63,209 nt of DNA, filler included, from Bipalium vagum (GCA_037834085.1; 3 parts of 3 records of this genome joined end to end with filler, not necessarily neighbours in it), one strand, 5' to 3'. Positions 16,026 to 20,330 are shown, numbered from the whole stretch's first letter. The notes: generated from the sequence alone by a model not told the origin. Translations and numbers: made by a program.

Positions 16026-16425
16026 TCTACATTAAAAATTTCATGTATTTTTAAATATAATTAATTTCAACTGTTGTCATTAAATTTGCACATCAGTATA
16101 TATTGTAAACATAAAGTTATACATGATTATATTTTAAATACCTCTTTAAATATAAGATATTAAGATATTTCATTGGATTTTATGCAGCACAAAAAGGAAA
16201 ATTAGTTTTTTTTCAATTATATTTTTTAGTTTTCTTATTAGGATTAAATATGAAAATAGAAACTAGAAAAGATAAACCAAATTGTTATATATTTCATAAT
16301 GTTGTGAAAGAAATAACACAGGAAGTAAGAACAATCGAATTTTTAAATAAAAATGAACAATATGTTTATAATATTGAAACGGAAGATGAATAATTTAACT
16401 GTGAATTTCCCTTAATTGTAAAAAT
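16026..16425 (+). pseudogene. C-terminal half of a LAGLIDADG-type intein inserted in pPolB motif C
   Basis: KHKVIHDYILNTSLNIR..FIGFYAA/QKGK..LYFLVFLLGLNMKIETRKDKPNCY, then block F/G-like YVYNIETEDE*FNCEFPLIVK(N), directly followed by T-D-F-I-F-V. Frameshifts at ~16160 and ~16422. Confidence 0.8.
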
Positions 16426-16883
16426 ACTGATTTTATATTTGTAGAATTAATTCTAGATAATAATGAAACTATTGAAGATGTGAAATATAAAGTAAAAGAT
16501 TTTATAAAACATGGTGTATTATTTCTTAATAAATATGAAATGGCTAATCAAATTTTCATAGAATCTTATGCTATTAAATCTAAGCTTTATAGTTATAGTT
16601 ATTTAAAAGATAGAGAAATTTTAACTGCTAAAAAATAAAGGGAAATATTAAAATTAATAAAATTGAAATAAAGGACTGTGATGATGTTTTGAAAAATCAT
16701 GATATAATAAAAAAAATATTTGGAATGAAATCTGAAAAACATAATATCATTTTATATTCACAAAATAAAATAGCATTATCTCCATTTGATGATAAAAGAT
16801 TAATTAAAGATAAAAGAATAATTACTTATCCTCATGGATATAAAATAAAGTGTGAAAATGTAATAATTATGTTTATAAATTAG
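16426..16883 (+). pseudogene. Protein-primed DNA polymerase B, C-terminal part (C-extein)
   Basis: TD(S>F)IFVE...GVLFLNKYEMANQIFIESYAIKSKLYSY...NKIALSPFDDKRLI..ITYPHGY, matching the Maverick/adintovirus pPolB C-terminal motifs. Confidence 0.88.
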
Positions 16884-17015
16884 ATGAAATTAACAAATTT
16901 CATCTTTTTTAAACTAAAAATAATTACAGATTTTTTTTGAAAAAAAATAAATAATTGTAAATCTTATCATTTAACCCATATTAGAAATCATAGAAATATT
17001 CCTGAAAATAATATT

Positions 17016-18090
17016 TTAGAGAAATTTTTTTAACAAAACAGCATTCATTTTTCTTTTAAAATCTAAATCTTTTTTAATATTTAAAGTTACAACTGAACCA
17101 TTTACATATAAATTTTCTGGTTGATCTTTTAAATCAAAACAAAATATTGAATATAAAAATTGAAATTCTAATAAACTTAATTGGGGATCATTATTAAAAT
17201 ATTTACATGCTTTTATTATTTCTATTATTAGTTCTATTATTTCTCTGTTTTTCAAATTGTATAGAATGTAAAGGTTAGTATGAACTTGAATTATCTTGAA
17301 CTCTTAAACTTTGTATTTTATTTTGAATAAACAAACTATATTTTTTATTAAAATCAAATTCTCTTTCTCTGAAAGCAATCAATATAAATGGGTTTATTTG
17401 CTACATTATATAATTGTAAAGTTTGTGTTTTACCTTCAATGAGATTTCTTTCTGCACAATGTCTTGATAATTCTGGAATAAATAGTTTTAAATAAGAAAT
17501 TTTATTTTTACATTTCCTTTAGGTTCATAAAGTATTTCTTTATTTAAATCCACTTTTCTTTTAAATGTATTTTCTCCCTGCATATTATAAATAACTCTAT
17601 CGAAAAAACTCAAAGATTAATTTTAATGGAAAATAACCTATAAATTTATTATTTGAATACAAACTTTTTCTTTCTATGAATCCTTTATTATCCTTCTCTG
17701 TAATCCATCAAAATATTCCATCATAAATAATCCATCATTATTTATATCAATCATTACAAAATTTCATATATAATTTGATGAAACTAAATTTTTAATGGTT
17801 TCTACCTCTGATGAACCTTATCTTAAAATCACATTAGTAAACAAATAAGGAAAGAAATTCTTTTGTAAAGTTATATTTTCATTTGCTTTTATATCTTCTA
17901 TTTCTATTTCAAAAATTAAAATTGCGTTTGATAAGGCTAAAGCTTCTGATGATTGTAATAAAGAAGAAATTACATTTCCATTTTTATTTATATTTGTTGC
18001 AATTGGTGGATTTAAAGATATTTCTAAATAATCATACTTTCTTGATGTTAAGTATTGATAATAATTTTTATCAAAATTTAAATTTGTCAT
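17016..18090 (-). pseudogene. Maverick major capsid protein (double jelly-roll type), fragmented
   Basis: N-term ...ENITLQKNFFPYLFTNVILR, middle KGFIERKSLY...FPLKLIFEFFDRVIYN, C-term YSIFCFDLKDQPENL. Its position between ATPase and PolB fits. Confidence 0.72.
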
Positions 18091-18187
18091 TTTTCTAATA
18101 GAAAATTAACATAAATTAAAAATGTGGAAGGTAAAACATTCAATGGCTCTTTCAATGTCCGAGGCTGAGAGTAAGATTTTTTCTTCT

Positions 18188-18665
18188 TATAAATTTATTA
18201 AGAAATTATTATATTTTTCTCTCATATGAAAATTGTATAAATAATCAAGTTCATCTTTTTCCATAAAACTTGCTAACATTCTAGAATATATTTGCTCTCT
18301 ATCGGATTTTGAAATTTTAAATAAAATTACTTTTATTTTCATTTTTGTATAATAATTTATTTTTCTTCAAATTTTAGTTTTATTTTATTTTTAAATTTAT
18401 TGTTAACTTCTTCTTTACATAATCCATATTCAAAAAAATCGCATATATTTAATTTCTGGTTGAATAAAAGCGATTTTAGAAAAAATTATCAGAATACTGT
18501 AATCTATATAGTTTTTTTGTATAATAATAATAATTTTTTTATATAATAATAAATATGTTTTTCCCGATCCAGAAGGATCAATAATTAACATTCTAAAAAT
18601 TTGTGGTAAATTAAAATGATGATTAAATTTAATTTCAGTATCAAAACAAGGATCCTCTATTTTTA
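18188..18665 (-). pseudogene. FtsK/A32-like packaging ATPase, decayed
   Basis: NHHFNLPQIFRMLIIDPSGSGKTYLL (Walker A, G>D) at ~18550-18625, and C-term VILFKISKSDREQIYSRMLASFMEKDELDYLY..EKYNNFLINL*. Confidence 0.82.
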
Positions 18666-18999
18666 TAAATTCTTTTTAAATCTCTTTAACTCAAACTTGT
18701 TTCAAATGATTGCTTAGCAAGCCATGTTGAAAGCAGGCTACACGTGTTTCAAATGAATAGTAAAACTGATATCTTCTCCATTAAATTTTATAGTTCAATT
18801 TTGTTATCAAATATCTTTAATTTTTTTTCATTAATATTTTTTTAATTAAAGGATAGTAAATTATAAATTTTGATCTTTCAATAATTCTAGATCCTCTTCT
18901 AACATTGTTACAAGAAAATTCGAAAATAATATTTTTTCGATTTTTTAAAAAATAAAATAATTTAATTTAATCAGAATCTAGATTACATTCAACTTTTAT

Positions 19000-19858
19000 T
19001 TTTTCTTAATAATCATTATTGATACTTTTTTGCTTTTTTAACTTATTTATTAATTTTTAAATTAAATGATCAACATTATTATGAACAGCTTTTTAGCATA
19101 CAAATATTTTCTTAAAGATATAAATTTATATATTAAATTATTATATATTAAATTTTTATAAATTCTATACTGTATTTTTGATCGTATCTTTTCATATCGT
19201 TTTTTAATATTTTTAACATGCTTAGCTTTGAAATACTACTCACATATTTTATTAAATCTAAATAATTCTCTATTTCATTAAAATTATAATCTCCATCATT
19301 ATTCATTTTCAGAGCTATTTAATCTTCTATCAATTTTATTTTTTTTAGAAGAATCAAGTAAATTCTTTTCTAAATATAATTCATTGTTTTCATTTATAAT
19401 TGGAATATTTTTTTAATTTATTTTTAAAATATTTCCTCGAACTGGTGGTTTTATTGTAAGAGGAATTTCTCTATCTGCGATATCAAATAATTTTTTATAA
19501 TAATCATCATAATATATTTAGGGGGCTTTTCTTCTTCAGTTTTTCATCAAGTAAAGTAGTTAATTTTTCGTTAACCTTTTCTTTATTCTAATCTTTAATT
19601 CGATTAGAATTATATTTAGTTTCTATAGTTTGTTGATTTTATCTTTTACAACCGTTTGATTCTCTAATTTATCAGAAAATGTCTTTGTGCTTAGCGCATC
19701 CGTAACAGGTTTATGAAATTTTGTTAACTCTATATGTATTCCTTTTTCTGCATAATATTTATTTTAATGATCAGTATGAGATTCATCTTTTACACCAATT
19801 AATTTTTTAATATTTCAATTCTTCTGTGAAGATCAATTAAAGTTTGTTTTGATTCCAT
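19000..19858 (-). pseudogene. Maverick conserved accessory ORF, decayed
   Basis: N-term ELTKFHKPVTDAL and C-term YAKKAVHNNVD resemble the 'FKPI..L' and 'A..AGH.N' motifs of a common Maverick ORF. Confidence 0.5.
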
Positions 19859-19879
19859 TTTCAAAAATTTTAAAATGTA

Positions 19880-20330
19880 ATGTATTTCACTTAATTAAAT
19901 TTTACATCTTCTCTTTTTACTGTTTTTTAATTTCTTGTTTCAATTCCTTTTTAAACTCTTTATTTATATTTTCAATAGTAATCCCTGATTTTATTTTTTT
20001 TGTAATATTTCTTTATATTCAGTAATTATTATTTTAGCTTGTTCAATTTCATTATTAGATAATATTTTATCTTCTAGTACTTTTAGATGAAATAAGTAAA
20101 GTTTGTTAATTGAGTGTTCAAGACTTTCACCAATTTCTCTGTAAATTATTTTTCTTATTGATGTAATATTTCTAATAATTATTTCAGAAATAAATACATT
20201 TAAAGCAGTAAAAATTGCAGTACCAATAGAAATATAAATTTATAAACCAATTCTCAAAGTTAAAACTCCTGTTAATATTAAATATTTAATTAAGCACTAG
20301 ATTTAAAATTCTAAAATTAAAAAGGACTAA
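19880..20330 (-). pseudogene. Maverick/adintovirus membrane protein ('gasderminX'-like), decayed
   Basis: Hydrophobic segment LTGVLTLRIGL*IYISIGTAIFTALNVFISEIII followed by LEHSINKLYLFHLKVLEDKILSNNEIEQAKIIITEYK. Confidence 0.55.

Follow-up and report, generated by a model that had tools for sequence, protein, structure and literature searches.

Animal Mavericks have been described as 'adintoviruses' (PMC8502044) and, in nematodes, as pPolB2 Polintons (PMC10748475). The element studied here, a Maverick/Polinton-like virus, lies within positions 16,026–20,330 of a 63,209-nt window (the whole stretch of DNA analysed) from Bipalium vagum (GCA_037834085.1). Its family has in common with both described groups a protein-primed DNA polymerase of family B (pPolB), a double jelly-roll capsid protein, a penton-like gene, and an A32 ATPase, as well as an rve integrase, a protease-like gene, and a PLA2-like domain. 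The nematode Polintons also resemble it in an HNH/EndoVII insert in pPolB and in the swapping of polymerases under one capsid family. Two features distinguish it from the known animal Mavericks, namely an intein of the self-splicing type in polymerase motif C and the fusion of the PLA2-like domain to the integrase; the word 'intein' is absent from the main texts of both papers. We estimate at about 0.8 the probability that the element is a decayed Maverick whose pPolB was split at motif C by a full-type intein, likely derived from the PolB of giant viruses and likely spread by homing.

The insert corresponds in position to the pol-c allele of the Mimivirus PolB intein, which lies at the same site, YGD/TDS (here and below a slash within a sequence marks a junction), and likewise starts with Ser, ends with Asn, and is followed by Thr at +1 (PMC549080, excerpt). 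PolB inteins of giant viruses carry a LAGLIDADG endonuclease and are about 350 residues long, as here (PMC5784728, bioRxiv 214536, excerpts). The host gene differs from those of the giant-virus inteins, being a protein-primed PolB of an integrating element of the 15–20 kb class, endogenised in an animal nuclear genome. In the excerpted part of a 2018 survey (PMC5784728), the viral inteins listed come from families of nucleocytoplasmic large DNA viruses (NCLDV) and from unclassified viruses, and the nuclear ones from fungi; reviews, in the sections covered, report inteins from prokaryotes, fungi, algal chloroplasts, and giant viruses, and do not count animal chromosomes or protein-primed polymerases among the hosts. 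Inteins are mentioned in general terms only in excerpts of PMC12220804 and PMC3671162, have no occurrence in those of PMC11131425 and PMC13215967, and are raised in PMC10991399 only for a rejected cox2 idea. The nearest prior statement is the suggestion that HNH, VSR, and GIY-YIG nuclease inserts in polinton pPolBs and in helicases of polinton-like viruses represent intein invasions (PMC11161782, excerpt). Those inserts are, as here, nuclease domains inside replication proteins; the passage in question describes neither a Hint domain nor splice junctions, whereas the present family has a complete Hint and LAGLIDADG unit with empty alleles, the Hint fold being recognised in intact relatives. 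A full-text literature search, which did not cover supplements, subscription papers, Repbase, Dfam, or InBase, did not turn up any account of an intein with a Hint domain in the pPolB of a Polinton.

The window retains the C-terminal third of the intein (Table 1), that is, the end of the endonuclease domain, block F (YVYNIETE), and block G with its final Asn; the second LAGLIDADG motif is damaged by a deletion, and a stop codon and frameshifts are present. The junction with the extein lies at 16425/16426 (codons AAT/ACT). The sequence-only reading had called pPolB across this region, correctly for the C terminus matched by tblastn at 16423–16844 (+) and mistakenly for 16098–16425, which is intein. 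The remainder of the intein is known from sister copies in the B. vagum genome (G000; 441 Mb, about 25% GC), to which the counts of copies and of subfamilies below refer. The whole intein comprises ~350 residues inserted at motif C (HFGD/S...KN/TDS). Occupied copies read HFGD/SVTEDTP...GFPLIVKN/TDS and empty copies HFGD/TDS, with identical flanking DNA; at the nucleotide level the empty alleles read GAT/ACT between the same flanks. Ser is the first residue in 19/29 copies, and the KN/T end is found in 22/29; the insert is 1034–1070 nt long in four of the six copies with both junctions, the other two being shortened by deletion. At each catalytic position of the intein the majority residue among the genome copies is the catalytic one, including the block-B Thr (46/56) and His (50/58) and the block-F Asp (35/43), and the two LAGLIDADG Asp residues are kept in 39/54 and 32/46 copies.

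The C-terminal part of the intein in the window has 80 genome matches among 105 candidates. For the N-terminal part there are 87 matches among 110 candidates, compared with 861 candidates for the N-extein; in the set of the 150 best matches to the N-extein, 17 contigs have a match to the start of the intein as well (query taken from an occupied copy). Occupied alleles would thus make up roughly one in six to eight. The 131 distinct copies fetched (100 with intein sequence and 31 empty) are biased to occupied alleles because most were fetched with intein queries. Empty alleles with D-C-D-S in place of D-T-D-S at the site were seen in two separate data sets (P0352 and P0354; L163, L164, and L256) and are possible escape variants.

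Long homologues of the intein interior reside almost entirely in RNA-primed PF00136 PolBs (35/37), the other two being in topoisomerase II, and the homologous PolB inteins are inserted at YGD/S...N/TDS. The matching IMG/VR loci include records of giant virus metagenome-assembled genomes (GVMAG), and NCLDV capsid genes lie nearby. In the nearest group the exteins share about 51% identity with PolB from a GVMAG record, except for P0134 and P0275, whose match to it is weak. The nearest viral inteins are 37–46% identical to that of B. vagum, and the nearest viral set (P0005/P0134) shares its unusual GFPLIVKN-type C-terminal block. In a search across the junction, 24 of the 28 top matches inspected proved to be pPolBs with the same intein, many of them close kin. 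Three of these proteins (P0236, P0239, and P0263) are intact pPolBs with PF03175, PF14890, and a LAGLIDADG-type domain. P0236 (1537 residues, 136 members) occurs on contigs up to 1 Mb, and the many near-identical copies that such long contigs contain point to eukaryotic genomes as the source; the intact intein-bearing pPolBs are known here from ENA, JGI, and NCBI records as proteins alone. Both LAGLIDADG Asp residues are kept in the intact relatives. The structural model of P0266, which is almost pure intein, has a mean confidence (pLDDT) of 89.5 and matches TliVMA (E 2e-17), PI-TkoII, PI-PfuI, and PI-SceI. A sequence search of PDB with the intein interior gave no match, and one with the intein alignment matched the extein columns alone. 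On sequence, alleles, and fold, the insert is almost certainly a real intein. Probable giant viruses also have related inteins in their type II topoisomerases (P0035, P0038, P0107, P0109, and P0117), and a third pPolB-like type with an HLGSFIL motif, found on a short contig (P0102), contains the same intein beginning at YTD/S; a search of viral contigs with P0100 gave no relative.

The relationships of the inteins were assessed in an unrooted IQ-TREE phylogeny of 42 rows (12 pPolB-hosted inteins and the 30 best-scoring of 194 viral rows). The decayed row L051, which falls outside the pPolB group in a larger tree of 215 rows, was omitted from it, as were eight near-duplicate or gappy rows. The pPolB-hosted inteins form one side of a branch with support of 100/99, adjoining the P0005/P0134 set of giant-virus-type PolB inteins, and those of B. 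vagum group with P0263 (98/93). The extein tree is arranged differently. Here P0263 is a TAHARL-type pPolB, separated by the deepest split from the HNH/EndoVII type of the window, and is sister to the TAHARL-type pPolBs of this genome, in which all seven distinct sites seen are empty; the window C-extein groups with P0236, P0239, and P0250. These type labels were assigned by motif, and the window type would correspond to Jeong's pPolB2 (by the HNH insert) and Starrett's Beta (by description), neither equation being based on reference sequences. Path lengths read off the trees between the B. vagum and P0263 sequences are about 1.1 for the intein and about 4.3 for the extein; for P0236 and P0239 both are about 1.1. 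The former disparity points to sideways movement between polymerases, and the intein has very probably been mobile between pPolB types.

Five lineages contain both occupied and empty sites, namely this family, P0236/P0356, P0250/P0366, P0239/L053, and P0263/L072. In the P0236 cluster, where occupied and empty exteins are 97–98% identical, differences pile up at the site (9–13 of 41 positions, Fisher p<=3e-7), which is consistent with co-conversion or escape. Long open pPolB frames (936–941 residues) with an empty motif C were noted in two other Maverick lineages (L052 and L053). The copies in the B. vagum genome fall into three star-like subfamilies, each with occupied and empty members; the window copy belongs to the older subfamily B (pairwise divergence about 0.24–0.27, versus 0.13–0.18 in A). 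Net divergence between A and B is 0.09 for the intein and 0.40 for the C-extein. By rough counts on noisy alignments, dN/dS (nonsynonymous to synonymous rates) is 0.6–1.0 within subfamilies, as in decay, and about 0.2–0.3 between them for exteins and intein alike (net intein about 0.29). A protein-level intein tree of the genome copies was too noisy and was not used.

Several observations weigh against the proposed reading. With respect to activity, none of 100 copies is open in one frame from block B to block F; the penultimate intein residue in this genome is Lys rather than the His found in P0236; the block-F His is absent, the Lys end and the missing His being common to the nearest viral inteins; the window intein pieces alone score below Pfam and NCBIfam cut-offs; and splicing and cutting are predictions from sequence. 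With respect to origin, the 42-row intein tree is unrooted and hence carries no direction of transfer. It would therefore also accommodate movement from Mavericks to giant viruses, or separate acquisition by both groups from another pol-c source, in archaea or phages, neither of which needs co-infection of animal cells by giant viruses. Archaea do carry pol-c inteins (PMC549080, excerpt), and identities of 37–46% to the viral inteins make the event old and possibly one that took place in a protist. We consider this explanation unlikely, as the pPolB group is nested among inteins of RNA-primed PolBs in the midpoint-rooted 215-row tree, RNA-primed hosts account for 194 of 204 non-redundant inteins (in a collection biased by the search), and the nearest set has the same unusual end. 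Given the nested position, entry from a giant virus, the likely origin of the intein, is the simpler reading of an unrooted tree; because identity to the viral inteins is just 37–46%, this entry may itself date to a protist.

With respect to homing, a tree that keeps the HNH-type-hosted inteins together is not rejected by the approximately unbiased (AU) test (p 0.142); the P0250 cluster shows no pile-up of differences at the site (0/41); and between subfamilies A and B divergence is as low in the N-extein as in the intein (dS 0.29 and 0.21, respectively, dN 0.06 for both). The net divergences of intein and C-extein had spoken strongly for homing between A and B; the N-extein values weaken that case, as one recombination would also give the pattern, and homing between the two is no more than possible. 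The AU result is compatible with more than one order of jumps, but the disparity of path lengths shows sideways movement. The same observations bear on an explanation in which a real intein was gained once and passed on vertically, the present patchwork arising by precise loss, recombination, and polymerase swapping with no recent homing: the pPolB inteins form one group, the N-extein tracks the intein between the two subfamilies, and one capsid family occurs here with two pPolB types, so that module exchange is common. This course of events is nonetheless improbable, since the intein distance between the B. vagum and P0263 sequences is a quarter of the extein distance (the two being equal for P0236 and P0239), both LAGLIDADG Asp residues are retained in the intact relatives, and precise loss would have to be repeated in five lineages. 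An assembly chimera or contamination that fused giant-virus and Maverick DNA is hardly credible even for an assembly in 272,664 contigs whose depth data may come from its own source run, as codon-exact junctions recur in dozens of copies that decayed separately and lie on different contigs, the same arrangement is found in intact proteins of ENA, JGI, and NCBI records, and depth is host-like.

Under the preferred reading, that of a homing intein of likely giant-virus origin, the precursor in the active virus would splice by the chemistry known for inteins (PMC7765530, excerpt), using Ser1, the block-B Thr and His, the block-F Asp, the terminal Asn, and the +1 Thr, and would thereby restore the YxDTDS active site of the polymerase. 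Because the active site could not tolerate imprecise loss, the intein would be retained. Once released, the endonuclease would cleave the empty alleles of co-infecting or integrated Mavericks, and repair would copy the intein into them. Several waves of germ-line entry would have taken place in this lineage, at a time when occupied and empty alleles coexisted in it; every copy seen is now dead. A competitive role has been proposed for the inteins of Bodo saltans virus (bioRxiv 214536, excerpt) and by analogy is possible for the Maverick intein. More tentatively, we suggest that Mavericks might co-infect cells with giant viruses and so pick up inteins from them, and that a Maverick-specific clade of LAGLIDADG inteins might still be homing, including into integrated copies, as a working gene drive in animal nuclear genomes with the active site of the Maverick polymerase as its target.

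Taken alone, the stretch is an ordinary integrated, dead Maverick/Polinton. It forms the left end of contig C195053, which occupies 16026–41368 of the window, and its genes were placed by tblastn with the open frames of sister copies (Table 1). This placement bears out what the sequence-only reading had proposed, namely a Maverick/Polinton-like virus with pPolB on the plus strand converging on membrane protein, ATPase, and capsid genes on the minus strand, and a dead copy: six-frame translation shows frames broken by stops and frameshifts throughout, and all genes are affected. Pfam and NCBIfam searches with the window fragments gave nothing above cut-off for capsid, polymerase, or intein, and the A32 ATPase profile PF04665 reaches E 0.004 on the window piece and E 6e-9 on sister copy L048. 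Other family members score with the double jelly-roll profile PF21738 (L033, E 1e-18), with rve (L034, E 2e-7), and with PF03175 in pieces, the last being present also in P0236 and P0239. A full-length capsid relative, P0002 (53% identical), yields a low-confidence model (pLDDT 56) whose best fold matches are the capsid proteins of PRD1 (P3), iridovirus, mavirus, and Sputnik, in agreement with the double jelly-roll that had been anticipated. The ancestor of the element presumably formed virions.

Table 1. Features of the Maverick element and its immediate borders (window coordinates)
Feature	Position	Strand	Evidence
Young repeat fragment, non-Maverick	16026..16103		96-100% identity with parts of L216, L057, L044
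LAGLIDADG intein in pPolB, C-terminal third	16098..16425	+	tblastn 61% to sister intein C-part; 45% to P0263 intein, E 9e-18
pPolB C-extein, +1 Thr of motif C to end, HNH/EndoVII-bearing type, broken	16426..16883	+	46-47% to intein-free sister L065
Double jelly-roll major capsid protein, broken	17016..18090	-	tblastn to L033/L008 frames (17025-18072)
A32/FtsK-type packaging ATPase, broken, Walker A degenerate	18190..18675	-	tblastn 18229-18642
Probable minor capsid (penton), C-terminal part	18741..19041	-	tblastn E 7e-11 to sister frame L046
Accessory region of element, decayed	19050..19990	-	DNA about 73% to L003, L004, L007
Predicted membrane protein of element	19994..20290	-	48% to L065 frame (20009-20239)
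Non-LTR retrotransposon, right bound, outside element	20707..23127	-	RVT_1 E 1e-18; further copies present

A minor capsid gene had been reported as not visible, and a probable one is in fact present; Pfam profiles gave no match to it, and we take it to be the penton because of its constant position ahead of the ATPase and a C-terminal motif. For the membrane protein, the Atlas neighbours are clusters without names whose members include viral and mollusc sequences, and we presume a likeness to the adintovirus 'GasderminX'. In sister copies the gene order is protease-like, PLA2/integrase, membrane protein, accessory, penton, ATPase, and capsid, converging on pPolB. The absence of a visible integrase and protease from the window copy holds (no match at E<=1), yet sister copies contain an integrase and a protease candidate: rve integrases lie next to family genes in L035, L045, L250, and L256, and a protease candidate with a GxHW/YFDS motif and no Pfam match adjoins family genes at 10 loci. 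Searches made without positive controls gave no match to adenain (PF00770) or arthropod cuticle protein (PF00379), and, with regard to terminal inverted repeats, a crude scan for AGT repeats (window stretch and 24 loci) gave six unevaluated matches, none in the window, where the copy is cut on both sides. The PLA2-like match in sister frames is weak; the domain is fused in frame to the integrase N terminus in L034 (1109–2008), L045, and L070. The same capsid family stands beside the very different TAHARL-type pPolB in L063 and L261 (contigs C189539 and C272587), an arrangement that is polymerase swapping as in the nematode Polintons. A Maverick-like fragment of 50% GC (ATPase and capsid-like frame) within this 25% GC genome (L029, contig C238508) may be a foreign lineage or a contaminant. 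The family is large: all 150 scored candidates of 1409 found at first look match one capsid fragment, which puts the number of copies with a capsid gene at 150 or more, and the element stretch has 86 DNA matches in the genome.

Maverick homology spans 16098 to about 20290. Of the bounds given previously, the retrotransposon on the right is confirmed and the contig does end on the left, where the actual cut is made by an unrelated, young repeat, of which 78 bp are present. The retrotransposon has many close copies, and a variant with a 265-bp deletion (20466–20732) occurs in the sequencing run. An exon of the host gene FAM60A/SINHCAF (24137–24427, +; PF15396, E 7e-23), with a probable later exon at 33895–34557 (+), lies 3.8 kb from the Maverick on the same contig; this exon and 44 Wnt matches in the genome mark the host as an animal. 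Unitigs specific to this copy have a depth of 15–31, compared with 28 in the host flank, in the one run listed with the sequence, which is possibly the assembly source; no RNA run is listed with it. The shared contig and host-like depth argue for integration and not contamination, as the depth check proposed earlier was meant to decide. Decayed transposase pieces also occur in the window; that at 13854–14174 is IS1595/Merlin-like (PF12762, E 9e-4), and those at 8599–11376, 38664–39890, and 42696–43031 we take to be Tc1/mariner-like and pogo-like. Maverick expansions are on record for Dugesia (bioRxiv 2025.12.11.693146, excerpt).

The presence of an intein explains the broken or oversized appearance of such pPolB genes in annotation. 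With intact inteins and matched empty alleles in the P0236 and P0250 clusters, the published suggestion of intein invasion becomes testable. A clade of pol-c inteins found in pPolBs alone is physical evidence that genes have passed between giant viruses and Mavericks, and equally that distant Maverick lineages have met in one cell; it bears on how Mavericks replicate and on whether they live alongside giant viruses.

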